From: Candidatus Lokiarchaeum ossiferum
Lineage (GTDB): Archaea > Asgardarchaeota > Lokiarchaeia > Sigyniarchaeales > Promethearchaeaceae
Direction: 5' to 3'
DNA length: 32,000 bases
Assembly (NCBI GenBank): GCA_025839675.1
Contig: CP104013.1
Location: 4,950,001 to 4,982,000, forward strand
A program made the translations under genes and the position numbers. Shown piece after piece: positions 12,943-32,000 of this stretch. How positions within the stretch are numbered: position 1 is the stretch's first letter; each line of letters begins with the position of its first letter. Below the pieces are notes generated by a model that saw only the letters and a list, made by a program, of their open reading frames with translations, searched no databases and was not told where the DNA came from.

Positions 12943-12979
12943 CATGCATTATATGTTCCTAATTCTTGAGGAAAAGAAT

Positions 12980-14947
12980 ATGCCTTCAGTACAAAAATTT
13001 CCCATTGACATGAGCGGGTATAAACCCGTAATTTTGGATTTATCACAACCTGATTTATCAAACGATGAAGTTAATCAACTTGAAAAAAATGTACAATTGG
13101 CTCGCGATGCCATCATTTTCTTTACTGCTTATGCTGGAGTAAAGCGGCTGGGTGGTCATACTGGTGGAGCCTATGATATTGTTCCTGAAATGTTAATTGC
13201 AGATAGTTTAAAGATAGGAAGAAACAAAATCCATCCTGTTATTTTTGACGAAGCAGGACATCGGGTAGCTGTGCACTATTTACTCGCCGCTTTAAATGGC
13301 TTTATGCCTCTTGAAGATTTACTTCACTACCGCCAAGCTTACTGTTGGCTTCCAGGCCATCCTGAAAAAGGATACACTCCAGGGATTGAGTTTAGTTCTG
13401 GGAGATTAGGACATATGTGGTCCTTTGTTAACGGCGTTGCTCTGGCTAATCCGACTCAGAAAATACTCATGATGGGCAGCGATGGATCCCAACAAGAAGG
13501 TACTAATGCTGAAGCTGCTCGATTTGCAGTCACCAATAACCTTGAAGTGAAATTATTCATCGATGATAATGATATGACCATAGCGGGACATCCTAGCAAT
13601 TATTTAGCAGGATATAATATTGATAGAACCCTAAAAGGCCATGGGATGTCTTCGGAAGTATGTGAAGATCCAGAAAATATCCGATTGCTCTATCGACATA
13701 TGGTGCGTTGTATTACTACTAAGGGGCCGGCTGCTGTTGTGTGTAAAAGAAAGATGGCACAAGGCATCCCTGGAATTGAAGATACTTCCAAGGGTCATGA
13801 TGTTATTCCAGAAGAAGCTGCTATTGCCTATTTGACAAAGCGAGGATATACTAAAGCAGTGGAAATGATTCAAAATGCCGAAAAGGAAAAAGCAATCTTC
13901 GATTATTTAGGGTCTACAAAAGAATTTCGTAAACCTCGGGATAAATTCGGAAAAGTAGTGTGTGAGATTCTTGGAAAAATGACCTTAAAAGAACGGTTAC
14001 ATAAAGTTCGTGTAATTGATAATGATTTGCTCGGGTCATGTGGGCTTCATTTTGTAAAAAATGAGTTTCCTGAAGTGTTCATTTCTGGTGGAATTATGGA
14101 GCGGAATAATTATACCGTCGCGGCAGGGTTCGGATCCACTCCTGGACGCCAGGGAATAACTGCGACATTTTCGGCCTTTTTAGAGATGCTTCCGTCAGAA
14201 ATAACCATGGCGCGATATAATGATGCAAATGTTCTCGCTCACTTTTCCCATGCTGGAGTGGATTGGATGGCTGATAACAATTGTCACTTTGGTATTAATA
14301 ATTTCTTTGCCGACAATGGGATTGCGGAAAAAGATACCACTCGACTTTATTTTCCAGCCGACTATCATCAAATGGGGGCGATTGTAAAAGAAGTGTTTAA
14401 CGATCCTGGTTTGCGTTTTGTCTTTTCAACACGATCCCCTTCTCCTTTTATCTTGGATGAGAATGGAAATCGATTCTTTGATATAAAGAATGGTTATAAG
14501 TTCAAACCTAAAAAAGATGAATTAATCCGAGAAGGGACGGATGGGTATATTGTTGCTTATGGTGAAATGCTTCATCGATGTTTGGATGTTGTTGAATCGC
14601 TGAAAAAGGAAGGTAAATACGTGGGATTGATTAATAAACCGACGCTTAATAAAGCTGACAAAGCCATGATGGCGAAAATCGGGGAAGCTCCATTTATTTT
14701 GGTGGTTGAAAGCCAAAACTATAAAACAGGCCTTGGGGCTCGGTTCGGGACTTGGTTGCTTGAATCAGGTTATTCTCCTGTTTATCAACATCTTGGGGTT
14801 ACAAAATTGGGTGTGACTGGTCTTTGGGAACAAATTGACCATCAAGGCTTGGATCCTTACAATATTGCAAAAGTTACCCGAAGATTAGTATTAAATACCA
14901 AGAAAGGCAAGGGCAAAGATCTCACCCAATGGTTAAAAAATGAGTAA
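12980..14947 (+). CDS. Transketolase-family protein, N and C halves fused, divergent
   Basis: GGHTGGAYD, LPGHPE and the ThDP motif region GSDGSQQEGTNAEAARFAVTNNLEVKLFIDDNDMTIAG (GDG...N pattern) are present. The Pyr-domain sequence GIMERNNYTVAAGFG...FSHAGVDWMADNNCHFG aligns to THDS..GEDGPTHQ with substitutions. Confidence 0.75.
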   Translation: MPSVQKFPIDMSGYKPVILDLSQPDLSNDEVNQLEKNVQLARDAIIFFTAYAGVKRLGGHTGGAYDIVPEMLIADSLKIGRNKIHPVIFDEAGHRVAVHYLLAALNGFMPLEDLLHYRQAYCWLPGHPEKGYTPGIEFSSGRLGHMWSFVNGVALANPTQKILMMGSDGSQQEGTNAEAARFAVTNNLEVKLFIDDNDMTIAGHPSNYLAGYNIDRTLKGHGMSSEVCEDPENIRLLYRHMVRCITTKGPAAVVCKRKMAQGIPGIEDTSKGHDVIPEEAAIAYLTKRGYTKAVEMIQNAEKEKAIFDYLGSTKEFRKPRDKFGKVVCEILGKMTLKERLHKVRVIDNDLLGSCGLHFVKNEFPEVFISGGIMERNNYTVAAGFGSTPGRQGITATFSAFLEMLPSEITMARYNDANVLAHFSHAGVDWMADNNCHFGINNFFADNGIAEKDTTRLYFPADYHQMGAIVKEVFNDPGLRFVFSTRSPSPFILDENGNRFFDIKNGYKFKPKKDELIREGTDGYIVAYGEMLHRCLDVVESLKKEGKYVGLINKPTLNKADKAMMAKIGEAPFILVVESQNYKTGLGARFGTWLLESGYSPVYQHLGVTKLGVTGLWEQIDHQGLDPYNIAKVTRRLVLNTKKGKGKDLTQWLKNE

Positions 14948-18560: not shown

Positions 18561-19115
18561 TTATTCGAAATTCTGGTCTGCTTCAATCCGCTTTGCATTC
18601 TCATAACATTGACGGGCGATTTCCATAAACATTTCTTCCACATTTGTCCCATCCTTGGCTGAAGTTTCAATGTGGGTTGCATTTAATCGACTGGTTAAAT
18701 CCTCTGCTTCTTCCCGATTAACGCGCCTCTCTTCCTCAGCAATGTCTATCTTATTTCCAATTACGATCAATGGTATATTTCCAGCTGCATTTTGCATGGT
18801 GGTGGTCCATCCTGGTAATCTAAGTAATGATTCGGGCATTGTGATGTCATATACTCCAATGGCCCCTTGACTTCCCTTAAAATAAATGTTTCGCATCGTG
18901 GAAAATTGCGCTTGGCCGCCAATATCCCAAATCATCAGACGGATATCGTTTCCCTCAATTTCAACATCTTTAATAAGGAAATTCGTTCCGATTGTCTGTT
19001 TGAGATCTAAGGAAAAAGAATGTTTAATAAACCTGAGAATTAAACTGGTTTTTCCAACATTTTGGCTTCCGAATAAGGGTATTTTGAACTTGTATTGTTT
19101 TCGCTGTGTGCTAAT
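18561..19115 (-). CDS. Rab/Ras-like small GTPase (184 aa if initiated at ATT 19115)
   Basis: My own translation upstream of the listed ATG (18935) stays in frame: ISTQRKQYKFKIPLFGSQNVGKTSLILRFIKHSFSLDLKQTIGTNFLIKDVEIEGNDIRL-MIWDIGGQ. That gives G1 GSQNVGKT, a switch I Thr, G3 WDIGGQ, G4 GNKID and G5 ETSAK. There is no in-frame ATG/GTG/TTG between the upstream TAA and 18935. ATT at 19115-19113 is preceded by GAGGAG with a 6-nt spacer. Confidence 0.8.
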   Translation of the reverse strand: MSTQRKQYKFKIPLFGSQNVGKTSLILRFIKHSFSLDLKQTIGTNFLIKDVEIEGNDIRLMIWDIGGQAQFSTMRNIYFKGSQGAIGVYDITMPESLLRLPGWTTTMQNAAGNIPLIVIGNKIDIAEEERRVNREEAEDLTSRLNATHIETSAKDGTNVEEMFMEIARQCYENAKRIEADQNFE

Positions 19116-19121
19116 GGTTAT

Positions 19122-19127
19122 CTCCTC
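19122..19127 (-). promoter_or_regulatory. Shine-Dalgarno-like GAGGAG upstream of the candidate ATT start of the GTPase
   Basis: The minus strand reads TATGAGGAGATAACCATTAGC. Other genes in the window (translin, ATPase, transketolase) show comparable GGAG-type SD sequences at similar spacing. Confidence 0.4.
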
Positions 19128-19322
19128 ATAATTTCTGTTTGTGCTGTAATCATCAATAGTTAGATTTTTTCTATAATATATTTATTTTCTTTAGTAGTAT
19201 TAAATAATCCATTTTCTAACCCTTCTGTCAATAAAAGCTTTTTTAAAAGAGGATTGAAAATAGTTGGATATTAAATAGTAGTTTAAAAAAGAGCTTATTT
19301 TGTTCCCTTCATGTTTCTTCTT

Positions 19323-20210
19323 TTAGTTCTCATGCAACAAATCAATTTCGATCAATTTAATCTCATCCACATCGCGAATTTGGCGTAATCGTTCCTTGGT
19401 CTCGTCAAAATTATCAAAATTCAGCGGATTGAGATAAACCTCATAGATACATTTTCCCCCCTGTTGACAAATCCCAGAAGTGTAAACAAACGGAAGTTGA
19501 AGTTCTTGAAAGACTATACTAATTTCCTTCAATGTATCTGGACTTAATTGCCCATTGAAAATAACCGCAATCTTCACTACCCGTTCTTGATCGTAAGGGA
19601 TAATATCTACCTTAAAATTTTCTTTCCGTTTTTGAAAAACAACAAAATAATTTTTGCGGGTTTCAATAAAAGATTCGAGATCTCGGACTATCTTGATAGG
19701 TAGGTGTAAAGATTGCTTCTTGCGAAGATCTTGAAAGGGAACCAATATTCCGTGGGTTTGGGCTTGTCCAATGGCAAAAAACTTAGCCAATATTTCAAAT
19801 TCCTTGGTGAGGTATTCGAACTCTCCCTTAATTTCTTCCTCGTAATTTAACGGGGGATTATTGATATAGAGGGCTTTATAAATCTCTTTTCGCTTTTCCT
19901 TAATGATTTTCACAAATTCTTTGAATTCATGTTCATAGGAATTAAAATTGGGGGATTCTTCTTCAATTATCTTGGTTATCATTACCATCTCTTGCTTTCC
20001 CCGCGCCCACGCAGAAGGGATCATGAAGAAATAATTTGCGGTATTAAGTTCGGCAGAAAACGCATGGGTGAAAAAGCCCGGAGTTGCTGCATCCATCAAC
20101 CGTTTAATCTGGTTAATATCATCCTCTGACACAATATCCGTAATATTTTTTGGGACGCTGTAAAGGATGTCGGGTCCGATGATGGGATTGAAGTAAGTTA
20201 AGATGAGCAT
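19323..20210 (-). CDS. Longin-like (FLCN/NPRL2/DENN-type) domain protein with a C-terminal ACT-like region
   Basis: The N-terminal LTYFNPIIGPDILYSVP resembles NPRL2 FFSEFHPTLGPKITYQVP. FFMIPSAWARGKQEMVMITKII resembles FLCN [21 protein letters not shown]. Residues ~211-290 (VKIAVIFNG..PDTLKEISIVFQEL..FVYTSGICQQ..CIYEVYLNP..TKERLRQI..EIKLIEI) read as a beta-alpha-beta-beta-alpha-beta unit. Confidence 0.55.
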   Translation of the reverse strand: MLILTYFNPIIGPDILYSVPKNITDIVSEDDINQIKRLMDAATPGFFTHAFSAELNTANYFFMIPSAWARGKQEMVMITKIIEEESPNFNSYEHEFKEFVKIIKEKRKEIYKALYINNPPLNYEEEIKGEFEYLTKEFEILAKFFAIGQAQTHGILVPFQDLRKKQSLHLPIKIVRDLESFIETRKNYFVVFQKRKENFKVDIIPYDQERVVKIAVIFNGQLSPDTLKEISIVFQELQLPFVYTSGICQQGGKCIYEVYLNPLNFDNFDETKERLRQIRDVDEIKLIEIDLLHEN

Positions 20211-20386: not shown

Positions 20387-20665
20387 TTATTTCAAACTTT
20401 TTGTAATTTCCTCCATTATAGGCGAAGGAAACTCTGCTTGATTGTTCCGATATTGGTAATTGGAGTATTGAATCTTTTTTATGAGTAAATTTTTCTTCGC
20501 CATTTCAATCGCTTGAGGTTTGGATTTTTTTCCCGACCAAAAATAGATCCGATTCTGTGTTTGATCGACCACTATTGCGATATCATCGTTTAGCAATTGT
20601 TCCGTCTGTATCCACCCCTTTTGTTGAAATTTATACACTTTCAGCTTATTTTCTTTCGTTTCCAT
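20387..20665 (-). CDS. Single-domain gelsolin/villin-like protein
   Basis: KVYKFQQKG...LLNDDIAIVVDQTQNRIYFWSGKKSKPQAIEMAKKNLLIKKI follows the gelsolin-repeat signature (LFQVKG...L.sgDcFILD.g..IyvW.G..S...E..kA...a..I). Confidence 0.7.
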   Translation of the reverse strand: METKENKLKVYKFQQKGWIQTEQLLNDDIAIVVDQTQNRIYFWSGKKSKPQAIEMAKKNLLIKKIQYSNYQYRNNQAEFPSPIMEEITKSLK

Positions 20666-20780: not shown

Positions 20781-21062
20781 ATGCTTTTCAAAAATATAAA
20801 TATCTGCGCAATGGGATGCATCGTGAAATTCCGACTCGTTTTTGAAACCACAACTAAGCATGGAAAGAAAGTGCAATTGAAGTTTAAAGTCCCCCCCTCC
20901 AAACATTTGGGCTTGATGAATTTTCTAAAGATCGCTATGGAAGGCGATGAGGACATTCAATTTGCTGTTGAAAAAATCTCTGAAGATAAACATGACCTCA
21001 GTAAAGCTAAGGGGACTTTCCGCTTAGTGCAAGATGATTCTGACGAATCGATCACCGATTAA
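20781..21062 (+). CDS. Hypothetical small acidic-tailed protein
   Basis: The ORF is 93 aa, or 83 aa from MGCIVKF at 20811. It is predicted beta-rich with one helix, and I recognise no family. It is kept as coding because it sits directly upstream of the transferase gene, ending 19 nt before that gene's preferred start at 21082 (29-nt overlap with the track ORF at 21034). Its codon usage resembles that of its neighbours. Confidence 0.4.
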   Translation: MLFKNINICAMGCIVKFRLVFETTTKHGKKVQLKFKVPPSKHLGLMNFLKIAMEGDEDIQFAVEKISEDKHDLSKAKGTFRLVQDDSDESITD

Positions 21063-21081
21063 CCCCTTTCTGGGATTTTTT

Positions 21082-21723
21082 ATGCCTTCTCGTTTCCGCC
21101 TCCGTAAAATTTTTGCCCCTGTAGTCAACTTTATGGCCAAAGGCTTTATCAAATTACAAGTCACTCCTAATATTGCCACTCTTTTGATGCTTTTTTGTGC
21201 CTGTATGAGTGCTTTGTCTTTGATTTTATGGGAGAGTTTACTATGGTATGGGATTTGGATTTTTATTACTGGGTTGATGGATGGTGTCGATGGGGCTATA
21301 GCTCGACTCACTGGTCGAAAGAGCAAATTTGGGGCGTTTTTTGATTCTTCCATGGATCGCTTGTCTGAAGGAATAATTTATTCCGCCTTATTAGTAAAAA
21401 TGGATTTGCTGTTTGATATTCCTGAAATTTGGAGCGTTCTTTTAATTGGGATGTGTTTATTATTTTCTTTTCTAATTAGCTACACTCGAGCCAGGTTAGA
21501 ATTAATTGGAAAAAGGGAAAAAATTAACTTTGATTCTAATATTGGTTTAATGGGTCGTTCGGAACGATTGTTTTACTTATTTCTCTCAAGTATGATTGTG
21601 GGATTTTTTCATATTGGCCTTCTTATTTTTATAATCACTTATTTCGTTTTAATTTTGACTACCGCCATCTATCGTTTCATAAAATATCAACAATTCATCG
21701 AGTCTATTGAAAAAAAGTTATGA
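21082..21723 (+). CDS. CDP-alcohol phosphatidyltransferase family; archaetidylinositol-phosphate-synthase-like
   Basis: The complete motif D-G-x2-A-R-x8-G-x3-D-x3-D is present in DGVDGAIARLTGRKSKFGAFFDSSMDRLSEG, with ~6 TM segments. The FGAF.DS..DR..(D/E)G variant resembles AIP/PIP synthases. Start moved from the track's 21034 to ATG 21082, which lies after the stop of the upstream ORF. Confidence 0.8.
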   Translation: MPSRFRLRKIFAPVVNFMAKGFIKLQVTPNIATLLMLFCACMSALSLILWESLLWYGIWIFITGLMDGVDGAIARLTGRKSKFGAFFDSSMDRLSEGIIYSALLVKMDLLFDIPEIWSVLLIGMCLLFSFLISYTRARLELIGKREKINFDSNIGLMGRSERLFYLFLSSMIVGFFHIGLLIFIITYFVLILTTAIYRFIKYQQFIESIEKKL

Positions 21724-21759: not shown

Positions 21760-22818
21760 TCATTCTGCTTTCGTTTCAAAAAATAATTCGATTCCCATCA
21801 AAGAGAATAGATCCTTAACATTCTCTCCCGTTTTTGCCGAAGTTTCAATAAATAAGCAATTTAATTCTTTTGCGAGAAGTCTTCCTTCTTCTTCAGTTAC
21901 TTGTCTTTCTTCAACAAGATCGCATTTATTGCCAACAATCACAATCGGTGCATCATGAACTATGCAACGAATATCTTCTAGCCAATATTTTATCCGTTCT
22001 TCAAAAGTGTTTCGTCTTGTTATATCATATAAAATAAACGCGGCTCGTGCTCCAGAATAATATGTTTTTCGTACCCGATGAAAAATTTTTTGTCCTGCAA
22101 TGTCCCAAATTATGAATTCTACGACTTTATTTTTTAATCCCTGTAAATTATTGGTCCGATTGGATATGGAAAATCCCAATGTTGGTTTATACTCTTTTTG
22201 ATATCGATTGGTGACAAATTGCTGAATTAAACTCGTTTTTCCTACGGCTTGATCCCCTAAAACACAAAATTTATACACCAATTTTTCATCTTCTGTACAT
22301 TGAAACGAGATTTTCTCCTCAAAATTCTGAAATTTACTCTTTGAAATTGTATGTGTTTTTTCTCCCACATTTAGATTGGGGATAGAAAGAGCTACTTTTT
22401 CTTCAGAATTGTCCATAAGTTGAACTATTTTTTCTGTAATCAAGAAAATGTTTGGCATTTCATCATTTATCTCTGGATCGTGTTCATATACACAGAGTAA
22501 AATTGCTTTTGATCCAGCCTCTGTGAATATAAATTTATGATCTTCTGTTTCAAACATTCCTGTACCGAAAGATCCAGGATATTCAAGTGAGATTTGTTTT
22601 AGTGTTGATTCTACACTATTCGCAACTGATCCGTAAATATTGTGTTCTGTATTTGTATTTTCCTCGTGTTTTATCTGGTTGAGAATTAAGGTTCCATCAC
22701 GTTCAAATAAATGGATCTCCAATAATCTATTTGAGGATGTTTTGAAGAAGTTTTGGAAGAGAATAGTTAACTTTTCATTAATTTTTGACATTATCTTTCC
22801 CTTTTCTTGATGCATCAA
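21760..22818 (-). CDS. Roadblock/LC7 (MglB-like) domain fused to a Rab-like small GTPase
   Basis: Residues ~11-136 follow the Roadblock pattern (LLEIHLFERDGTLI ... GSVANSVESTLKQIS ... FETEDHKFIFTEAGSKAILLCVY). Residues ~181-345 form a complete GTPase: G1 GDQAVGKTS, G3 WDIAGQ, G4 GNKCD and G5 ETSAK. An alternative start is MSKINE at 22791. Confidence 0.8.
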   Translation of the reverse strand: MMHQEKGKIMSKINEKLTILFQNFFKTSSNRLLEIHLFERDGTLILNQIKHEENTNTEHNIYGSVANSVESTLKQISLEYPGSFGTGMFETEDHKFIFTEAGSKAILLCVYEHDPEINDEMPNIFLITEKIVQLMDNSEEKVALSIPNLNVGEKTHTISKSKFQNFEEKISFQCTEDEKLVYKFCVLGDQAVGKTSLIQQFVTNRYQKEYKPTLGFSISNRTNNLQGLKNKVVEFIIWDIAGQKIFHRVRKTYYSGARAAFILYDITRRNTFEERIKYWLEDIRCIVHDAPIVIVGNKCDLVEERQVTEEEGRLLAKELNCLFIETSAKTGENVKDLFSLMGIELFFETKAE

Positions 22819-23948: not shown

Positions 23949-25115
23949 TTCACTTTCTTCGATTATATTTTGAAAGATATCAATTCTCTCAAACCATGTC
24001 ATTTCTTTTTTCTTTTTCAAAATATTCGATTTAATCTTTTCGTAAATTCCTTCATTTTGCAATAAATAATTAACCGCATAGACTATTTCACAAGAATTTC
24101 CGGGTTTAATTAAAACCCCTGTTTTTTCATGAACTATCAATTCTTTAATTCCCCCGACATTACTACCGATAACTGGGATATTAAATCCGAATGCTTCAAG
24201 CAACACATTTGGACAGCCATCATATAAAGAAGGAATTATTATCAAATCCGCTTGTCTATAATATTTCACAATTTCTTTACTTGGTAAATAACCTCGACAT
24301 TTTATCCGAGTAATGTTATTTTCTTTAATATATTTTAATATGGAATGATATAATGGCCCATCTCCGACAATATTGAATGTTAAATCTATATGTTTTTGAG
24401 AAATTTCATGGAAAGCATTTATTAAAATTTCACTTCCTTTTAATTCCGTTAGTGACCCTACAAAAAGTATTGATTTTATTCCCTTGCGAGATAAAATAGG
24501 GGGATTCTCATCCATTTTTTCAATTCCATTAGGACTATGGGTTGATTTCGTGTTTTCTATATTGTAATATTTGGAAACGACTAAAGATTCGAATTTTGAC
24601 ACCGATATTATTTTTTCAGCCTTTTGAAACAATCTTTTTTCTAAAAAATAAATTAGAAAGTAAAAAAGTTTAAAGTAAAACTGGTAAGGCGAATCTAAAG
24701 AATTATTTGAAATTTTAGCAATATAATTGCAGCCTCCATTTTTTATTGAATAGGGTATGTTTTTTGGTGAGTAATATATCGCCGGGGATATTATGAATAT
24801 ATAATCTGGTTTTTCAGTTCTTAAATACTTTGAAATTTTTATTGAATGAACCAGATTTTGAAATAGAGGTACTTTTGGAACTTGCATTCGATAAATTTTC
24901 CACTTGGAACCAATTTCAACATAATCCTTTTTAAAAAAGGGGAGTAGTATTTCTCTTACTGGAGAAATATTAAAGGAATGCATACGATCCCCCGTTATAA
25001 TTGAAATTTCGTGTTTATATTTTAAATTTAAGTATTTAGCTAATCTATAAGCACTTTTTCCTGTACCTTTAGAGTGTGGGGGAAAATCTCCTGATAGAAT
25101 TACTATTTTTGCCAT
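23940..25115 (-). CDS. Glycosyltransferase family 4 (GT-B)
   Basis: PSLYDGCPNVLLEAFGFNIPVIGSNVGGIKELI is the GT4 C-terminal signature. The gene's 3' end overlaps the convergent GT2 by 9 nt. Confidence 0.8.
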   Translation of the reverse strand: MAKIVILSGDFPPHSKGTGKSAYRLAKYLNLKYKHEISIITGDRMHSFNISPVREILLPFFKKDYVEIGSKWKIYRMQVPKVPLFQNLVHSIKISKYLRTEKPDYIFIISPAIYYSPKNIPYSIKNGGCNYIAKISNNSLDSPYQFYFKLFYFLIYFLEKRLFQKAEKIISVSKFESLVVSKYYNIENTKSTHSPNGIEKMDENPPILSRKGIKSILFVGSLTELKGSEILINAFHEISQKHIDLTFNIVGDGPLYHSILKYIKENNITRIKCRGYLPSKEIVKYYRQADLIIIPSLYDGCPNVLLEAFGFNIPVIGSNVGGIKELIVHEKTGVLIKPGNSCEIVYAVNYLLQNEGIYEKIKSNILKKKKEMTWFERIDIFQNIIEESESF

Positions 25116-25120
25116 TATTT

Positions 25121-26236
25121 TTACTGTATCCTCTTATAGATGATCAATAGTTTTTTGATTACTTCTTTCGAAGAATAATTTAGTTCAATATCATTTCTCG
25201 CACTTTCACGCATTTTTTCTGCAAAATTTTGATCATTGATATATTTTTCCATATTATTGGATAAATTTTTCACAGAATCTACTTGAAATACCAATCCATT
25301 TCTGTGATTTTTAATTAATTGCATATTTCCTGCAATGTTTGATACTATTACTGGAATTCCAAGGGCCATTGCTTCAAGTAAAGAATTACTTAACCCTTCA
25401 CTTTCCGAAGGTAATATAAAACAGTCAAAACTTGAATATATTTCATGAGCATTGGTTTGGAATCCTTTAAGTTTTATAACATTCTCCAATTGTTTTGATT
25501 TTATATATGAATCAATTTGATTATATAATGTGCCTAATCCATATAATTGGAGTGTAATTTCACAATTTTTCTGTAGAACAATCTCAAACGCTTCAAGCAT
25601 CAAAAAGATATTCTTGACCTTCTCAAGTCTTCCTACATAACCAAAACGGGTTATTTTTTTCATTTTTTTTATGTATTTAAAGTCGTCCAGATTAATTGCA
25701 TTTGGAATCAAATGGATTTTTTCGGTAGGAACATTGTAGTTTCTTTGTAAATCTTCTTTTATTCTATTATTCAATGCCTGAAAATGATTGGAATTTTCGA
25801 TCAAAAATTTTACAAAAATTTTATCTAGAGCTTTAATCAAATGATTTTTAGTTCTTGTATTGATCAATTGATAAATTTCACCACTGATTTTAGTCATTAT
25901 TTGGGTTTTTACAAACATTTTGAAGAATATACATGGAATTATAGTAATCCCTAAAATATGAGGATTTAAAATTGTGATTTCTTGTTTCTTATTGATGGAA
26001 AATAATCTGAAAAAGGTTTGGATAACAAAAAGAATTGAATTGCTTGAAAGCTGATGAATAATGATATTATTGGAATGTGGGATATACTTGGTATATTTTG
26101 TGATTAAATCAATCTTGATTTCCTTGTGGTTTGCATAAGTTGGAAGCAAACGTAAAATTTGTTTCTCCGCTCCACCAATTCTTAAATTCTTGCCCAAATT
26201 TTCATCCGTATTTGGAATTAATATTACGATATGCAT
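25121..26236 (-). CDS. Glycosyltransferase family 4 (GT-B)
   Basis: PSESEGLSNSLLEAMALGIPVIVSNIAGNMQLI is the GT4 signature. There is a 5-nt gap to the next gene. Confidence 0.8.
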   Translation of the reverse strand: MHIVILIPNTDENLGKNLRIGGAEKQILRLLPTYANHKEIKIDLITKYTKYIPHSNNIIIHQLSSNSILFVIQTFFRLFSINKKQEITILNPHILGITIIPCIFFKMFVKTQIMTKISGEIYQLINTRTKNHLIKALDKIFVKFLIENSNHFQALNNRIKEDLQRNYNVPTEKIHLIPNAINLDDFKYIKKMKKITRFGYVGRLEKVKNIFLMLEAFEIVLQKNCEITLQLYGLGTLYNQIDSYIKSKQLENVIKLKGFQTNAHEIYSSFDCFILPSESEGLSNSLLEAMALGIPVIVSNIAGNMQLIKNHRNGLVFQVDSVKNLSNNMEKYINDQNFAEKMRESARNDIELNYSSKEVIKKLLIIYKRIQ

Positions 26237-26257
26237 TGCGTGAAACTCCTAGGCATT

Positions 26258-27655
26258 TCAGATGGAAAAATCTAAATTGGAAATAATGCATTTTCGTTTT
26301 CCAGAAGCCAGAGAAGGAATAGATTTAACCTCATTAAAAGATACATTCAGTTGATGATCTAAGTCCTTTTTTATGATTTTTATAATTTTAGTTTTTAGTT
26401 TTTTTAATTTTTCTTGGGTGGAATTCTGATTAAATACATAATTTATTTGAATATGATCCAATCTATCTTGTATGACCTGAAAATCTAAAATTGATGTCTG
26501 ATGGTAGAAAAGGAATGTAAAAAATAAACTATGTGCGAGTTTTCCTGAAGGTGTCGGCATAAAATCTGATTTACGACCGTGTATTGTCTTCAAACGTTTT
26601 AAATTTCTTCCACATTTACATTTATGATTTGAAAACTCACCAATATCTTCATTTTGATATCTTATAAATGGAAACGTGTAATTAACTAAGTCTGTGAGAA
26701 TAATATGCCCAATTTCCGAGTTTTCTTTTTCCTTTTTTATTTCAACATGTCGTATCTCTTCACTAATATGTAAACCATCTTTATATTTGCATTCATGTGC
26801 AATACTCGATATCTCTCTACTCCCATAGCTATTAAATACATTCGTTTGGAACATTCTTTCAATAGTGTTTCTCATTTCGGGGTATAAATTTTCTGCGGCA
26901 GATTGAATATTAAATTTAAAATGACTGCAATCAAAGTTATTTTTTTCCAAAAATTGAGCAAAAGTATTAAGTGCATTTGCGTAGCCTATTAATATTTTTG
27001 GCTGGAACTTGGTAAGTTTATTGTAAAAAGATTGCATTTTATTTTGATCCATACTAAAAGAATTTAAAAAAATCTCTCCAGATACTAATTCGCGAAATCC
27101 TTGAAGTTTTCTATCCTTAAAATTCATATAATCTTTATGCGATCCCCAAATATATGCCTTTTTTTCCCATAAGTGCCAATCACACCATTGAAAGTGTCTT
27201 AATCGATCAGCAAATGTCCAAGTATGATAATATCTATCTTGAAAAAAATTCAAGGGGTTTCCTGTGGAACCACCTGTGGAATTTTGATATTCAGGAGGAT
27301 AAGCAATAAATTTGGAGTGCAATTTGTGAGAATTTTTCTGAATTTCGCTTTTTGTTATTATAGGAAGAATTTCTTCAAAAGATTCAATATCTTTAATATT
27401 GGAAATTCGAATTTTTAATCGCTCAATAAGTTCTTGATAAAATGGATTATGTTTAGAACAGAAACGCAATAATTTTACTATTTTATCATATTTTAATTCA
27501 TATATTTCTTGTTCTGAATAATATTGGGTTTGATTTAAAATGTTGAGATATTTCAAATAATTTTGCTTTTTAAAAAGATTATTATTATAGAGGTGCATCA
27601 TTTTCTTCCTCAAATTGGATTGAATGAGATCGAAGCTTGAATTATTTGAAACCAT
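26258..27655 (-). CDS. Adenylate-forming ligase of the PaaK/CapK/F390-synthetase family
   Basis: NSTGGSTGNPL (the T/SSG-S/T-TGxP AMP-binding loop), YGSREIS (YGxxE) and FPFIRYQNEDIG (the RYrtgD motif) are present. Confidence 0.7.
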   Translation of the reverse strand: MVSNNSSFDLIQSNLRKKMMHLYNNNLFKKQNYLKYLNILNQTQYYSEQEIYELKYDKIVKLLRFCSKHNPFYQELIERLKIRISNIKDIESFEEILPIITKSEIQKNSHKLHSKFIAYPPEYQNSTGGSTGNPLNFFQDRYYHTWTFADRLRHFQWCDWHLWEKKAYIWGSHKDYMNFKDRKLQGFRELVSGEIFLNSFSMDQNKMQSFYNKLTKFQPKILIGYANALNTFAQFLEKNNFDCSHFKFNIQSAAENLYPEMRNTIERMFQTNVFNSYGSREISSIAHECKYKDGLHISEEIRHVEIKKEKENSEIGHIILTDLVNYTFPFIRYQNEDIGEFSNHKCKCGRNLKRLKTIHGRKSDFMPTPSGKLAHSLFFTFLFYHQTSILDFQVIQDRLDHIQINYVFNQNSTQEKLKKLKTKIIKIIKKDLDHQLNVSFNEVKSIPSLASGKRKCIISNLDFSI

Positions 27656-27791
27656 TTTTGATTATTCTAAATTAAGTTATGGACTTAAAATTTATTAGAT
27701 GAATTTTATTTCACAATTCAAAAAAAAAAGATACTATCTTAAAATATCCTGGATTGAACCAAATGAGAAATTTCAGATTCATATTACAAGA

Positions 27792-28799
27792 TTACGAGGT
27801 TATGTGAATACTATTCAAATATTTTATATTGGGAATTAACCATCCAACTTGGAATTTTTTTTTTTTTAAGTATTTTACAGCCAATAGCAATAAATTTTCT
27901 TTAAACAAGCAAAAGAAAGGCTTTAGTAAAAAAGAATTGATAAATATGAAAATATAACTTTCCAATCTTTTGGATTGGATTGCGATCGATGCAAAATAAA
28001 ATTTATTGGCTAATTTTAAACTATTATTCATTAATAATCTAAAGGCTAAATTATTTAATTGATAAGAGAGAATTTCAGGATATTTGTTATATTGAATATA
28101 ATTTTTTATTAGAATTTTCAAAATACCCCTCACTTTTTTAAAATAATTTGATGAAATACTTTGATTTTGAATATAATAATTAACTAAATGTTCATTAACG
28201 AATTTTATTTTATATTTCTGAATTAATCTTATCCACAAATCCCAATCTTGTGCTGAATCTAAGTTATCATCAAATCCATTTACTTCATGGATATATTTTG
28301 TTCTAATCAAGGGGTAACTACAGCTGCCTATAAAATTAGTTTCTAATATTTTTTTTTTGGGGTTTTTTATTTGGGCAGGCAATTTTTTCTCATAAATAAT
28401 TTGGTTTGATTCGAGTTTTTTGATAAAACCGCAATAAACTATGCCTATTTCAGGAGAATTCATATTGAAAATTTGATATTGCTTCATGAGTTTATTTGGG
28501 AAAAATTCATCATCATCATCCAAAAATGCAATATATTTTCCCTTAGCTAGTTTTATTCCTAAATTCCTTGCTGCTGGTGCTCCATGTTTACCTTTTAAAC
28601 TTTGGAAAATGATGTTTTTTTCTTTAAAAATGCCTAATTCTTCTTGTACACTATAATCTGAATGATCATCTATGACAATTATTTCAGTAGATGGATAATT
28701 TTGACGAATTACGCTTTTTATGGCTCGTTTCAATTGTTTAAACCTGTTATGGGTCGGAATTATAACTGATATAAGTGGATATTCCATGAGAATTTCCAT
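27792..28799 (-). CDS. Glycosyltransferase family 2
   Basis: ISVIIPTHNRFKQLKRAIKSVIRQNYPSTEIIVIDDHSD, APAARNLG and AFLDDDDEF (the DxD motif) are present. The track start is TTG 28823. ATG 28799 (MEILMEYPL) is preferred. Confidence 0.85.
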   Translation of the reverse strand: MEILMEYPLISVIIPTHNRFKQLKRAIKSVIRQNYPSTEIIVIDDHSDYSVQEELGIFKEKNIIFQSLKGKHGAPAARNLGIKLAKGKYIAFLDDDDEFFPNKLMKQYQIFNMNSPEIGIVYCGFIKKLESNQIIYEKKLPAQIKNPKKKILETNFIGSCSYPLIRTKYIHEVNGFDDNLDSAQDWDLWIRLIQKYKIKFVNEHLVNYYIQNQSISSNYFKKVRGILKILIKNYIQYNKYPEILSYQLNNLAFRLLMNNSLKLANKFYFASIAIQSKRLESYIFIFINSFLLKPFFCLFKENLLLLAVKYLKKKKFQVGWLIPNIKYLNSIHITS

Positions 28800-28905
28800 T
28801 ACCCTATTTATTTCTTTATTCAAAATTAATTTTTTTCATTTATTACTTGAACTACTACTTGACATCGTTTTACTATTTATTTTCCCATGAATTGATCCCA
28901 AACAA

Positions 28906-30405
28906 TTATTTCATAGAAAACTCATCTTTTAATCCTTTTTTATAATTTTTTAAGTTGAATAAATCCAAAAAGAATGAAATATCATCCCTATTAATAAAAT
29001 GGCATATTATTAAGCTTATAATAAAAAAAATAAATGATATTAGCGAAGATAATACAAGAAGAATGAGTTGTGACTCAATAACTTCGATTAATAAGTATTT
29101 CAGTAGATAACTGATTAAAAATGTCAAGAAAGAAAGAGGTAATATGAAAAATAATTTGTTTTCACCTTCAATACCAAAATATTTTTTAGAAAAATATCGA
29201 TAAAATGCATAATCAATGATATTGAACGTCAAATTTAAAAAACAATAACCAATTACTCCAAATCCAAGCAAATTTATCCCCCATATGTTTTCCGGAATTA
29301 TGATCACAATTAGGATTAAAAAACACACACTTCTTATGGAAAGATATCTTGAAATTACTCCTTGTTTCTTCCCTGCATACAAATGCTTATTGTAAGGCCG
29401 ACTCAAACTGCTGAATAATGGAATAAAAACTAAGATTTGCAAAATTGGGATGGAATCTATATAATTTGGTAAAAAAATTTGGAAAGCGATTTCTGCATTT
29501 AATAATGTGAGGATTGCCACCGCACAATAAAAAATCGCAGAATATTTTTCGATTTTCTGTGTCATTTTTTGAATTTCTTTGTATTTATTGTTGACAAACC
29601 ATTTCGCAAAATAACTCTCGTATATTACACCGATCGATAGTGTCACGGTGGTTAAAGTTACGATTATAAATGATTTGACGAAAAAATAATAAGCAAATTG
29701 TTCTGTTCCATAAAAGTGATCAATTATTAAATTTCCAATATTATCATTGAAGATTAGAATTAAAGATGTAAAAATGAGTGGTTTAGTTTCTTTCAACAGC
29801 TGGAAAATTCTACTTTTAGAGATTTTCGTTCGAGTTCTTTCTCCTTTAGATATGTAAAGTGTAAAAAATAGATTAATTCCAGCAAATAATAGTGATACCG
29901 CACCATATACTATTAATGGGTTCGAAAATTTGTTTAAATTGATCGAGATAATTGTTTTTACTATTGCGTTCAAAAAACCAATTACAAAACTTGGAATTTC
30001 GGCTTTATATATTTTCAATTTTGCTCTGAGGTGAGTATTTACAACAATTGAATATTTTGTTATTAATTCAGTTAAAGAAATGAGCAGGAAATATCCTTTA
30101 TATTGAAAATCAATTAAGAAAATGAAAAATAAGAGAGAAATAAATGATAAAAATATAATGGACAATTTAATAAACATAAAATTTGAATAATAAGATTCAA
30201 AATTGGAATCTCCACTATGTTGAATATAAATGGATTCAATTCCAATTGATAAGAACATAGTGAATATTCCAATATAACTCGAAACTTCTCCAGTAACTCC
30301 CATTAATTCTAATGACAAGTATTTTGCAAAAAAGTAGGCCGCAAAGATGTTTAGAAACTGAAGTCCTACCTGAAAAATCATTCTAATTATAAATTTATCC
30401 TTCAT
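28906..30405 (-). CDS. Polysaccharide/oligosaccharide flippase (Wzx-like, MOP superfamily)
   Basis: The protein is ~500 aa and almost entirely hydrophobic, with a dozen or so predicted TM segments by eye. The N-terminal FAKYLSLELMGV resembles the PST-family AR.L.pe.fG motif. It is embedded in the glycosyltransferase operon. Start moved from the track's 30477 to ATG 30405, which avoids a 64-nt overlap with the upstream gene. Confidence 0.7.
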   Translation of the reverse strand: MKDKFIIRMIFQVGLQFLNIFAAYFFAKYLSLELMGVTGEVSSYIGIFTMFLSIGIESIYIQHSGDSNFESYYSNFMFIKLSIIFLSFISLLFFIFLIDFQYKGYFLLISLTELITKYSIVVNTHLRAKLKIYKAEIPSFVIGFLNAIVKTIISINLNKFSNPLIVYGAVSLLFAGINLFFTLYISKGERTRTKISKSRIFQLLKETKPLIFTSLILIFNDNIGNLIIDHFYGTEQFAYYFFVKSFIIVTLTTVTLSIGVIYESYFAKWFVNNKYKEIQKMTQKIEKYSAIFYCAVAILTLLNAEIAFQIFLPNYIDSIPILQILVFIPLFSSLSRPYNKHLYAGKKQGVISRYLSIRSVCFLILIVIIIPENIWGINLLGFGVIGYCFLNLTFNIIDYAFYRYFSKKYFGIEGENKLFFILPLSFLTFLISYLLKYLLIEVIESQLILLVLSSLISFIFFIISLIICHFINRDDISFFLDLFNLKNYKKGLKDEFSMK

Positions 30406-30413
30406 ATTATCAT

Positions 30414-31487
30414 CTATTTTTGCAAAGTTTCTCTGAATATTTTCTTTAGTTGATTTCCTATTTTTTTTGGCGTACAATACTGAAGATATGTTTTATATCC
30501 TTCATGAGCAATTTTGGTTCTCAATATTGAATTTGTATATAAAGTAAGAATTGAATTTGCAAGTGATTCTGGATCTTCCGCTTTACAGAGTATTGCATTA
30601 TGTCCGTTTGTGAATAACTCCCGAATTGCTGGGTGATTGGATGATATAATTGCCTTTTCCAATGCTATTGCAGCATAAATCTTATTTGGAATTACAATCT
30701 GAGACTTAATAGAATTACCAAAAATACCCAAAATGATATCCGCTCTATTCAATTCATTGATCAATTGAGTTTCTTGCATGAAAGGAATTATTTCTACATT
30801 GTTTAAATTATTTTTTAACTTGAATTCAAGCATTTCTCTGAACAGAATCTTTTTTGGATTTCCGCCGATTATTTTAAAATGGATTTCAGTTTGATTTAAC
30901 AAAATTTTTGCAGCTTGGAATATAATCGGTATTCCTTGTAATGGAATATAGCTACCAAAGAAAGTAACTTGAAAATGTTGAGTTTTTGATTTTGAAATGC
31001 TATTTTCTTTTTCATAATCAGAACCAACGAAAACTCTGTGAATTTTTGATTTTGGTACTTGAATTTCTTCTGAAAAATAATTTCCATGGATCTTGGTGTC
31101 CGATATTAGTACATCGGCCATATTAAACGATAGGTTTTCAACAAATCGCAAGATATTTCCACGTAGACTATGTTTCGGAAACATATGGTAGTCGTTTACT
31201 TTAGTATTATATTGTGATATCAGCGGGTCATAAACAATTTTCTTTCTCTTTACACATTTGAGCAAAAGTGCTATGGGCATTGCTAAAATACTTGCTGGAA
31301 ATCCAATAAATATGATGTTATATTCTTCATTTAATGCTTTTTTAAGAAGCAGCCATTTTCTTTTGAAACTCCTTACATTGAAAATGTTACAATGAATTAC
31401 TTCGATTGAGTTTGCTTGTAATCCTTTCAAAATTATTCTATTTCTTGAATAATTTTGATGATAGGAACCAAAAAATAGTGCTTTCAC
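30414..31487 (-). CDS. GT-B fold glycosyltransferase (GT4-like)
   Basis: The C-terminal VIPNKIYAAIALEKAIISSNHPAIRELFTNGHNAILCKAEDPESLANSI matches the donor-binding half of GT-B enzymes. The N-terminus is MKALFFGSYHQNYSRNRIILKGL. It has a 4-nt ATGA overlap with the upstream gene. Confidence 0.6.
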   Translation of the reverse strand: MKALFFGSYHQNYSRNRIILKGLQANSIEVIHCNIFNVRSFKRKWLLLKKALNEEYNIIFIGFPASILAMPIALLLKCVKRKKIVYDPLISQYNTKVNDYHMFPKHSLRGNILRFVENLSFNMADVLISDTKIHGNYFSEEIQVPKSKIHRVFVGSDYEKENSISKSKTQHFQVTFFGSYIPLQGIPIIFQAAKILLNQTEIHFKIIGGNPKKILFREMLEFKLKNNLNNVEIIPFMQETQLINELNRADIILGIFGNSIKSQIVIPNKIYAAIALEKAIISSNHPAIRELFTNGHNAILCKAEDPESLANSILTLYTNSILRTKIAHEGYKTYLQYCTPKKIGNQLKKIFRETLQK

Positions 31488-31996
31488 TCCCTCACATCCA
31501 TATTATTTCGCTTATTCTCAATTTTCTGATACCAGAAATAAATTACTCCTAATATTATTGCAGACAATAAATAGAAAGGGAGGGCATGAATATCATCATA
31601 AAATGGATTTCGTTCATTAGTTTCATTTTCATTGAAAACGATTTCTTCCATTTCTCCTTGAATTACTTCAATATTTCGTATAATTATAAACGGATCCCCA
31701 AGATCGAGCGTTGTTTTTATATTTCCTAAGTATATACGGTTTCTTAATTCAGACGATGTCTCATAAAAACTGTTTCGCCAATTTATGAATTGCATTTTTT
31801 TTGCATTAATTTCAGGTTCTCTTATGTAACAATAAGATTGGTCTGAATTAATTTGTATACTTTCAATACTTGTAAACAAATGAGTTTTATTTTGATTCTC
31901 GAAAGAAATTACAGAATCCAATGCATTCTGGAAATTAATGCCAATTTGAGTAAAGAAACTTTCAATATAATAGCTAATTCCGGTAGACAAATTCAT
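31484..31996 (-). CDS. Hypothetical protein with a C-terminal TM anchor, first visible gene of the glycan operon
   Basis: The ORF is 170 aa with the TM segment LPFYLLSAIILGVIYFWY near the C-terminus. I recognise no family. The frame is still open for the 4 nt upstream of the ATG, so the gene may extend beyond the window. Confidence 0.45.
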   Translation of the reverse strand: MNLSTGISYYIESFFTQIGINFQNALDSVISFENQNKTHLFTSIESIQINSDQSYCYIREPEINAKKMQFINWRNSFYETSSELRNRIYLGNIKTTLDLGDPFIIIRNIEVIQGEMEEIVFNENETNERNPFYDDIHALPFYLLSAIILGVIYFWYQKIENKRNNMDVRE

Positions 31997-32000
31997 TTCT

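Follow-up and report, generated by a model that had tools for sequence, protein, structure and literature searches.

NPRL2 is the catalytic longin subunit of the GATOR1 complex and a GTPase-activating protein (GAP) for RagA/B, while folliculin (FLCN), with FNIP, and SMCR8, with C9orf72, are longin GAPs for RagC/D and Arf GTPases, respectively. A GP motif and an arginine finger together distinguish the longin GAPs NPRL2, FLCN, and SMCR8/C9orf72, and some Asgard longins carry both (Traffic 2025, PMC12290439). The same study describes these Asgard longins as FLCN/SMCR8-type and asks which GTPases they served. In Avl9-type DENN GAPs, an arginine in the β4–β5 loop is catalytic (bioRxiv 10.64898/2026.01.05.697756). 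NPRL2-like longins are abundant in Asgard archaea, where they are fused to two-component domains (Liu et al.), and the Candidatus Lokiarchaeum ossiferum genome is enriched in this class according to its genome paper. It is difficult to tell from genome layout which regulator belongs to which Asgard GTPase, and in Promethearchaeum syntrophicum MK-D1 the GTPase genes do not generally share operons with longin genes (Tran et al.). NEF87_004254 is an L. ossiferum gene that encodes a longin followed by an ACT-like module and is accompanied by a Ras-family GTPase gene; measured against that general statement, its locus is an informative exception. The gene lies in a 32,000-nucleotide stretch of contig CP104013.1 (assembly GCA_025839675.1, positions 4,950,001 to 4,982,000), hereafter the window, in which all L. 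ossiferum positions are numbered.

Since NPRL2-like longins are already established in Asgard archaea, the N-terminal half of NEF87_004254 belongs to a known class and is less novel than a preliminary description of the window had assumed. Novelty appears to lie in the C-terminal domain and in the conserved gene pair. The Cys-bearing ACT-like module, a form in which the two halves are split into separate genes, and the pairing with one Ras-like or RagA-type GTPase were not found in the searchable literature, which likewise contains none of the locus tags of NEF87_004254 and its neighbors. The reading favored here, at a probability of roughly 0.5, is that the protein is a two-module arginine-finger GAP for the neighboring GTPase, gated or dimerized by its Cys-containing ACT-like module.

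Longin fold and the GP and arginine motifs

NEF87_004254 is annotated as a hypothetical protein and is 100% identical to the product of a complete open reading frame (ORF) of 295 amino acids (aa), which is present on the minus strand exactly where the preliminary description had placed it. A Pfam scan of the whole protein returned no family at E≤1. It has 31 close homologs of 289–305 aa with 39–72% identity, including DSAG12_01826 of P. syntrophicum MK-D1, and their named sources are Lokiarchaeia/Promethearchaeota save for one partial record labeled Heimdallarchaeota. An exhaustive profile search extends the N-domain superfamily to 589 representatives at E≤1e-3, whose named lineages are all Asgard (Loki, Hel, Hod, and Promethearchaeota). 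Nothing new came from a further homolog search with the N-domain profile, and a metagenome scan for more loci with a degenerate DNA pattern gave zero matches.

The AlphaFold model was built from a 26-sequence alignment and has a mean predicted local distance difference test score (pLDDT) of 87 and a predicted template modeling score (pTM) of 0.55; a single-sequence model (pLDDT 43) was discarded. Residues 1–146 adopt the β-β-α-β-β-β-α-α order of longin domains, with β1 at residues 2–8, β2 at 12–19, α1 at 29–41, β3 at 45–50, β4 at 56–65, β5 at 73–81, α2 at 89–106, and α3 at 121–146. Helix α1 packs between β2 and β3 and two helices follow at the C-terminus, which is the longin arrangement, unlike the order of PAS domains. 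In Foldseek searches of the PDB, these residues match GATOR1 NPRL2 chains at E=2.8e-4 to 2e-3 with probabilities of 0.98–1.00. The chains (9v0j_A, E=2.8e-4; 9o5d_D, E=3.5e-4; 9o5a_H; 7t3b_B) are assigned to NPRL2 on the basis of their length, 362–370 residues against 380 aa, within GATOR1 entries that contain NPRL2. They are the sole identified longin proteins among the top 50 matches, where no SNARE, TRAPP, or adaptin longin occurs. PAS-histidine-kinase structures are also in the output, at lower probability and with a root-mean-square deviation (rmsd) of 26–30 Å.

Two short motifs dominate the conservation of this domain. Among 40 diverse N-domains the sole invariant positions are F7, G12, and R70, while P13, P20, N59, F62, S66, G71, E74, and Y115 are conserved in at least 90%. 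G12 and P13 form the β1–β2 turn, and R70, which is also invariant in 26 close sequences, lies between strands β4 and β5. Across the archaeal superfamily of about 590 relatives, no positions are more conserved than the GP motif and R70. The GP turn and the R70 loop should be adjacent in space, since the topology places them at the same end of neighboring strands in a 2-1-5-4-3 sheet.

The reference sequences were checked against the PDB, where NPRL2 matched over its full 380 residues with 871 bits, and FLCN (6ULG_L), SMCR8, and NikR were residue-for-residue identical to the deposited chains. Residues 5–20 of NEF87_004254 (TYFNPIIGPDILYSVP) had been described as an NPRL2-like start, and the pattern F-x-P-x-x-G-P-x-I-x-Y-x-V-P does agree position for position with residues 15–28 of human NPRL2 (FHPTLGPKITYQVP). 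With a profile of the 40 diverse N-domain sequences as the hhalign query, the single NPRL2 sequence gave P=1.3e-4, a score reached by 0 of 150 shuffles, and an eight-sequence NPRL2 profile gave P=1.2e-4 and a probability of 55% over 31 columns covering β1-GP-β2. The alignment pairs LILTYFNPIIGPDILYSVP with IFFSEFHPTLGPKITYQVP and sets G12-P13 on NPRL2 G20-P21; R70 falls on NPRL2 R78 in the extended and global alignments, at low per-column confidence. SMCR8 is matched over 96 columns (P=7e-4; 0/150 shuffles at that score), with GP on G68-P69 and R70 on R147, the arginine region again being low in per-column confidence. The non-GAP longins AP2S1 and SEC22B gave P=0.36 and P=0.30.

The preliminary description had also likened residues 60–82 (YFFMIPSAWARGKQEMVMITKII) to a strand of the FLCN/SMCR8 type. 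The likeness to SMCR8 holds, and the ARG motif resembles S-L-A-R164-G of FLCN, its distance from the FF pair differing by one residue. The comparison with FLCN itself does not rise above chance (P of about 0.08–0.1, with 12 of 150 shuffles at that score), and its placement of R70 on R164 belongs to that non-significant alignment. The sequence signal alone is weak, and it is the combination of fold, motif, and profile evidence that identifies the N-terminal half as an NPRL2/SMCR8-type longin. The longin similarity proposed earlier is in this way borne out by the AlphaFold topology, the Foldseek matches to NPRL2, and the profile pairing of GP and R70 with both eukaryotic proteins.

The C-terminal module and its cysteine motif

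The C-module begins with a linker part, residues 147–209, which contains short helices at 159–165 and 172–181 and a β-hairpin at 188–205 that ends in the invariant P205. This part is kept in stand-alone C-domain proteins of 140–150 aa. The ACT-like unit follows with a strand at residues 210–219, a helix at 224–237, strands at 241–248 and 253–260, a helix at 269–276, and a strand at 281–290, which reproduces the β-α-β-β-α-β order that had been proposed for the C-terminus. In Foldseek, the unit matches the NikR C-terminal domain (3lgh_D; template modeling score 0.78, rmsd 2.4 Å over 77 columns) and the ACT domains of PGDH/Ser33 (rmsd 2.2–2.9 Å over 81–85 columns).

The description of the C-terminus as ACT-like holds at the level of fold and finds no echo in Pfam, where no ACT match was obtained. 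The C-domain of NEF87_004254 alone has no Pfam family at E≤10, nine stand-alone C-domain proteins return unrelated weak matches (E≥0.015) and no ACT family, and an HMMER profile of the C-module finds no sequence match in the PDB. NikR homology is rejected at the sequence level, with an hhalign P of 0.67 against the verified Escherichia coli NikR. The kinship to ACT and NikR is therefore one of fold only. A Roadblock fold is also rejected, as its secondary-structure elements would come in a different order. The NPRL2-specific C-terminal domain, reported by Liu et al. in a few Loki genomes, was considered as well and is rejected, the hhalign comparison with NPRL2 residues 150–380 giving P=0.67.

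The most conserved feature of the module is a motif that was absent from the preliminary description, G-x-C-x5-C-x2-E, on the hairpin between β2 and β3. Across 47 diverse C-domains, stand-alone proteins included, P205, G246, C248, and E257 are conserved in 100%, C254 in 98%, and Y259 in 94%, so that the general signature reads [ST]-G-x-C-x5-C-x-[YF]-E-x-[YF]. This C-module, with its ACT-like core and invariant Cys motif, appears to be previously undescribed.

ACT and NikR domains are regulatory, usually dimerizing, ligand-binding modules. The C-unit shares its fold with ACT domains, such as those of 3-phosphoglycerate dehydrogenase and CASTOR1, and with the NikR C-domain (Foldseek rmsd 2.2–3.6 Å over 77–85 columns), and differs from both in the two extra helices and β-hairpin that precede its core. 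The nickel ligands of NikR, H76', H87, H89, and C95, offer a partial parallel. H89 and C95 flank the hairpin that topology suggests to be equivalent and are separated by x5, just as C248 and C254 are, whereas H76 and H87 are not conserved in the C-module. Paired cysteines across a hairpin in a cytoplasmic protein of an anaerobe suggest metal, cluster, or redox chemistry at a dimer interface. The invariant Cys-x5-Cys-x2-Glu is at least as suggestive of a metal or redox ligand as of an amino acid, and a metal, cluster, or redox ligand seems to suit the motif better than the amino-acid binding proposed earlier.

The two modules also occur apart. Among 180 parsed proteins, comprising the 31 close homologs and 149 further representatives of the profile search, 63 have the N plus C architecture, 103 have the N-domain only, and 14 have the C-domain only (140–150 aa); by representatives the counts are 34, 102, and 14 of 150. 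The N plus C proteins include a second clade with about 29% identity to NEF87_004254, one member of which, P0048, is labeled Hodarchaeota. In a split version of the locus (L007 2357–5426 and L008 116–2018), a gene for a stand-alone C-domain of 141 aa begins 44 bp after the gene of a 477-aa longin protein. The 477-aa protein has an N-terminal longin with GP and arginine (E=5e-42) and about 300 further residues without a Pfam match. That the longin and the C-module are encoded as adjacent separate genes in other Asgard genomes suggests that they are functional partners.

Association with Ras- and Rag-family GTPases

The gene that follows NEF87_004254 encodes a small GTPase with a full-length Ras domain (Pfam Ras, E=1.1e-45, model positions 1–161 of 162), at the 207-bp distance given in the preliminary description. 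Its P-loop is GSQNVGKTS, followed by WDIGGQ, GNKID, and TSAK; the P-loop, DxxGQ, NKxD, and SAK motifs and Q90 are invariant among orthologs. The reading frame has no ATG, GTG, or TTG ahead of the P-loop. Both L. ossiferum (19113–19127, minus strand) and P. syntrophicum (L001 8421–8435) share the element GAGGAG, then 6 nt, then ATT, which puts the probable L. ossiferum start at 19115. The MK-D1 gene is called from an ATC directly after GAGGAG, and more distant orthologs begin with Met. This pattern in the DNA suggests that the start codon is non-canonical, ATT (or ATA/ATC), and conserved together with a Shine-Dalgarno-like element.

The association with this GTPase recurs. A family hidden Markov model identifies a GTPase ortholog downstream of the longin-ACT gene, and on its strand, in 13 of the 14 loci with that gene, and the model separates orthologs (287–339 bits) from other Ras-like GTPases (98–152 bits). 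In the most divergent homologs, with about 40% identity (L003, L004, and L019), the longin and GTPase genes are directly adjacent with gaps of about 90–250 bp, and their other surroundings differ. Of the neighbors compared across 11 loci, the ~185-aa Ras-family GTPase is the most persistent (10/11), ahead of a 93-aa ORF (8/11), a CDP-alcohol phosphatidyltransferase (7/11), and Translin (7/11).

Relatives of the family are linked to GTPases of another type. In the second N plus C clade, P0048 and P0050 are divergently adjacent, at about 250 bp, to GTPases of 402–403 aa whose best Pfam match is Gtr1/RagA. The contigs of five homologs from this clade were read, and the other three are on short contigs that show no GTPase. 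The gene order, which is conserved in two sub-lineages of the clade (L021 1342–6956; L025 625–5963), is a RagA-like GTPase, the divergent longin-ACT gene, and an 830–850-aa protein with a TrmB domain. The split version in L007 has a divergently transcribed RagA-type GTPase as well. Among the 102 N-only representatives, at least 23 are direct fusions of a longin followed by a GTPase, about 320 aa in length; their GTPase domains are Arf- or Rag-like, and one such fusion lies 2.4 kb from a family member in L020. Among 56 sampled relatives, the Pfam domains fused to the N-domain are PAS (16), HATPase_c (7), Arf (11), and Ras (10). Conserved gene linkage and domain fusions together confirm the earlier proposal that the family is associated with GTPases.

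The window contains a second GTPase gene, also pointed out in the preliminary description, for which a Ras-family domain is confirmed together with a weak N-terminal Roadblock match; the product resembles a Roadblock-GTPase fusion. Its membership in the conserved module is rejected, since the other loci contain only matches of 33–38% to their linked ~185-aa GTPase and no ortholog. The coordinates of these features are collected below with those of other genes in the window.

Table 1. Features of the NEF87_004254 locus and its surroundings, in window coordinates
Feature	Position	Strand	Basis or remark
Longin-ACT gene NEF87_004254	19323..20210	minus	Complete; ATG start, 295 aa, TAA stop at 19323-19325 (ORF list)
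N-terminal longin domain, residues 1-146	19773..20210	minus	AlphaFold (pLDDT ~90), Foldseek, hhalign
GP motif G12-P13, β1-β2 turn	20172..20177	minus	Conservation, hhalign alignment
W68-A69-R70-G71, β4-β5 loop	19998..20009	minus	R70, candidate arginine finger, at 20001-20003
Linker part of C-module, residues 147-209	19584..19772	minus	AlphaFold pLDDT 70-86
ACT-like unit, residues 210-290	19341..19583	minus	AlphaFold pLDDT 85-93, Foldseek
C-domain signature G246-I-C248-x5-C254-I-Y-E257-V-Y259, β2-turn-β3 hairpin	19434..19475	minus	Conservation
Spacer, 207 bp	19116..19322	minus	T6 run 19285-19290, AT-rich stretches, GAGGAG 19122-19127 (sequence read)
Linked Ras-family small GTPase, 184 aa, probable ATT start	18561..19115	minus	Translation, Pfam
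Roadblock-GTPase-like ORF, 352 aa, TTG start	21760..22818	minus	C-terminal Ras E=9e-48; weak N-terminal Roadblock/LC7 E=0.16
92-aa ORF	20387..20665	minus	Directly upstream of the longin gene
93-aa ORF	20781..21062	plus	
CDP-alcohol phosphatidyltransferase	21034..21723		
Translin-family protein, 215 aa	16121..16768	minus	Pfam E=2.7e-9
667-aa ORF	12944..14947		In the stretch of ~40% G+C

Several neighboring genes have features of their own. The 92-aa ORF has a weak gelsolin-repeat match (E=0.007) and 31–32% identity to part of a 233-aa MK-D1 protein at the same position (L001 5251–5952) and to an ORF in L013. The 93-aa ORF shares 29 nt with the beginning of the CDP-alcohol phosphatidyltransferase gene and has 42–70% identity to its counterparts in the related loci, of which the MK-D1 protein has no precomputed Pfam family. 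Opposite-strand genes lie between the longin and GTPase genes in L001 (6915–7844, minus, MK-D1) and L005 (4971–5915, minus), and the L. ossiferum locus is without them. The intervening MK-D1 protein, of 309 aa, has a DUF7347 match and a weak Yip1-domain match (E=0.043); Yip1 proteins are Rab-interacting membrane proteins of eukaryotes. The G+C content is 25–29% at 25001–32000, about 40% at 13–15 kb, and 29–38% over most of the remaining window. An Rfam scan of the window found no RNA families.

Proposed function and comparison with known systems

In the favored reading, the longin face that carries GP and R70 would bind at the nucleotide pocket of the Ras-family GTPase whose gene lies 207 bp downstream. 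R70 would then serve as an arginine finger that speeds GTP hydrolysis, by analogy with NPRL2 R78 on RagA, FLCN R164 on RagC, and SMCR8 R147 on Arf1. The partner GTPase would bring its own catalytic glutamine (WDIGGQ), and R70 would complete the active site. Like ACT and NikR domains, the C-module may serve for dimerization, and it may couple the activity of the protein to a ligand at the Cys motif, for which a metal ion, a cluster, or a redox signal seems more likely than an amino acid.

Several observations weigh against this reading. Most longins are exchange factors or scaffolds rather than GAPs, the eukaryotic longin GAPs act as heterodimers, and the window contains no second longin gene that could supply a partner. 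The similarity to the eukaryotic longin GAPs is weak, its confident part being confined to the columns around GP and the alignment of the arginine region being low in confidence. HMMER searches of the PDB returned no significant match to the full-family, N-domain superfamily, or C-domain profile, with NPRL2 at E=0.81, and none of the Pfam longin, NPR2, Folliculin, and ACT models detects the protein. The arrangement of the two domains is uncertain in the model, as its pTM indicates. Harpocratesius repetitus (L012) is the exception to the linkage, without a GTPase ortholog within 5 kb; MK-D1 and some other genomes have two or three genes inserted between the pair, mostly on the opposite strand; and much of the synteny falls among related Lokiarchaeia. 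The two genes may also be transcribed separately, since a T6 run follows the stop codon and the spacer is AT-rich. Finally, the frequent fusions of the same longin type to PAS and histidine-kinase domains would also suit a sensor or adaptor role.

Other matches in these searches were set aside. The HMMER matches to FliG, NEMO, and a CCCH zinc finger (E=0.063) were judged to be chance or coiled-coil noise. A Pfam scan of the 40 N-domains at E≤10 gave scattered noise, including two weak Afi1 matches (E=0.038) that are not relied on.

The alternative that survives best, although it is clearly less probable than GAP activity, is that the longin is a GTPase-binding platform, namely a guanine nucleotide exchange factor (GEF), scaffold, or effector in the manner of Mon1-Ccz1, TRAPP, or Ragulator, in which R70 and GP would be structural or binding residues. 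Most characterized longin and roadblock modules are GEFs or platforms (PMC10933270), and Liu et al. proposed a GEF role for another Asgard DENN/longin module. E74, four residues past R70 and one of the highly conserved positions, could form an internal salt bridge with R70, and gene linkage and fusions suit any GTPase regulator equally. However, the invariant positions are exactly the GP motif and the β4–β5 arginine that set longin GAPs apart, and NPRL2 and SMCR8 score against the profile, whereas AP2S1 and SEC22B, which are non-GAP longins, do not.

A GTPase-independent role as a sensor of a small molecule, a metal, or redox state is improbable; the protein would then have a PAS/GAF-like input domain (profilin-like class) at the N-terminus and an ACT/NikR-like domain at the C-terminus, and the GTPase would be a mere syntenic neighbor. 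The N-domain does stand at the N-terminus of PAS/histidine-kinase proteins in 16 of the 56 sampled relatives, which is a typical input position, and PAS-histidine-kinase structures appear in the Foldseek output at very high rmsd. Part of the synteny reflects shared ancestry, since translin and the CDP-alcohol transferase are co-conserved as well, and a T-run separates the longin and GTPase genes. Against these points, GTPase domains are directly fused in 23 of 102 relatives, and the linkage recurs with different GTPases, Ras-like in the Lokiarchaeial family and RagA-like in the second clade and the split version. The helix order is also that of a longin and not of PAS, and the PAS-kinase matches are remote in rmsd.

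More improbable still is a convergent or chance likeness to NPRL2, SMCR8, and FLCN in a generic Asgard longin, for which the non-significant HMMER searches, the short confident hhalign segment, the FLCN result, and the modest Foldseek E-values (~3e-4) can be cited, whereas two independent motifs at topologically equivalent loops are the family's most conserved positions, none of the shuffles attains the score of NPRL2 or SMCR8, the identified longins in the Foldseek top 50 are all NPRL2 chains, and independent published analyses assign Asgard longins likewise.

The GAP reading can be carried further, to a proposal that is doubtful as a whole. The locus might represent a self-contained, signal-gated GAP and an archaeal forerunner of GATOR1/folliculin logic, in which an NPRL2-type longin is placed under a fused or adjacent Cys-ligand sensor of a metal, an iron-sulfur cluster, or redox state and acts on a dedicated Rab-like GTPase in Lokiarchaeia and on a RagA-like GTPase in relatives. 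If this were true, the coupling of a longin GAP, a Rag/Rab-type GTPase, and a metabolic signal would predate eukaryotes.

The locus provides a concrete longin-GTPase candidate pair for the question of which GTPases are targeted by Asgard longins with GP and arginine, and both Lokiarchaeum ossiferum and Promethearchaeum syntrophicum are in culture. If GAP activity and a ligand of the Cys domain prove true, signal-controlled longin GAPs would predate eukaryotes, and the pair would be a minimal system for studies of mechanism. If GAP activity does not prove true, the locus would stay a known-family Asgard longin with a new conserved domain attached.

NPRL2 is among the closest of the described systems. 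It shares with NEF87_004254 the longin fold, the N-terminal pattern in register, and an arginine in the β4–β5 loop (R78 against R70), and its pairing with RagA is mirrored in the relatives of NEF87_004254 that lie beside RagA-type genes. In contrast, NPRL2 has a TINI and a C-terminal domain that NEF87_004254 lacks, and no counterparts of its GATOR1 partners NPRL3 and DEPDC5 were identified for NEF87_004254. NPRL2 acts on Rag GTPases, whereas the partner gene in Lokiarchaeum is Ras/Rab-like. SMCR8-C9orf72 and folliculin-FNIP have the GP and A-R-G motifs in common with NEF87_004254, the latter as S-L-A-R164-G in FLCN and A-W-A-R70-G here. SMCR8 and FLCN are longin-DENN proteins in heterodimers, whereas the longin of NEF87_004254 precedes an ACT-like domain instead.

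The Asgard NPRL2-like longins (Liu et al., asCOGs) belong to the same domain class, and fusions to PAS/histidine-kinase, TPR, and GTPase domains occur among the relatives found here as well. Among prokaryotic systems, MglB-MglA likewise consists of a small GTPase regulated by an adjacently encoded protein of the Roadblock/longin fold. In contrast to NEF87_004254, a longin with an invariant arginine, MglB is a homodimer of Roadblock domains that supplies no arginine finger of its own.

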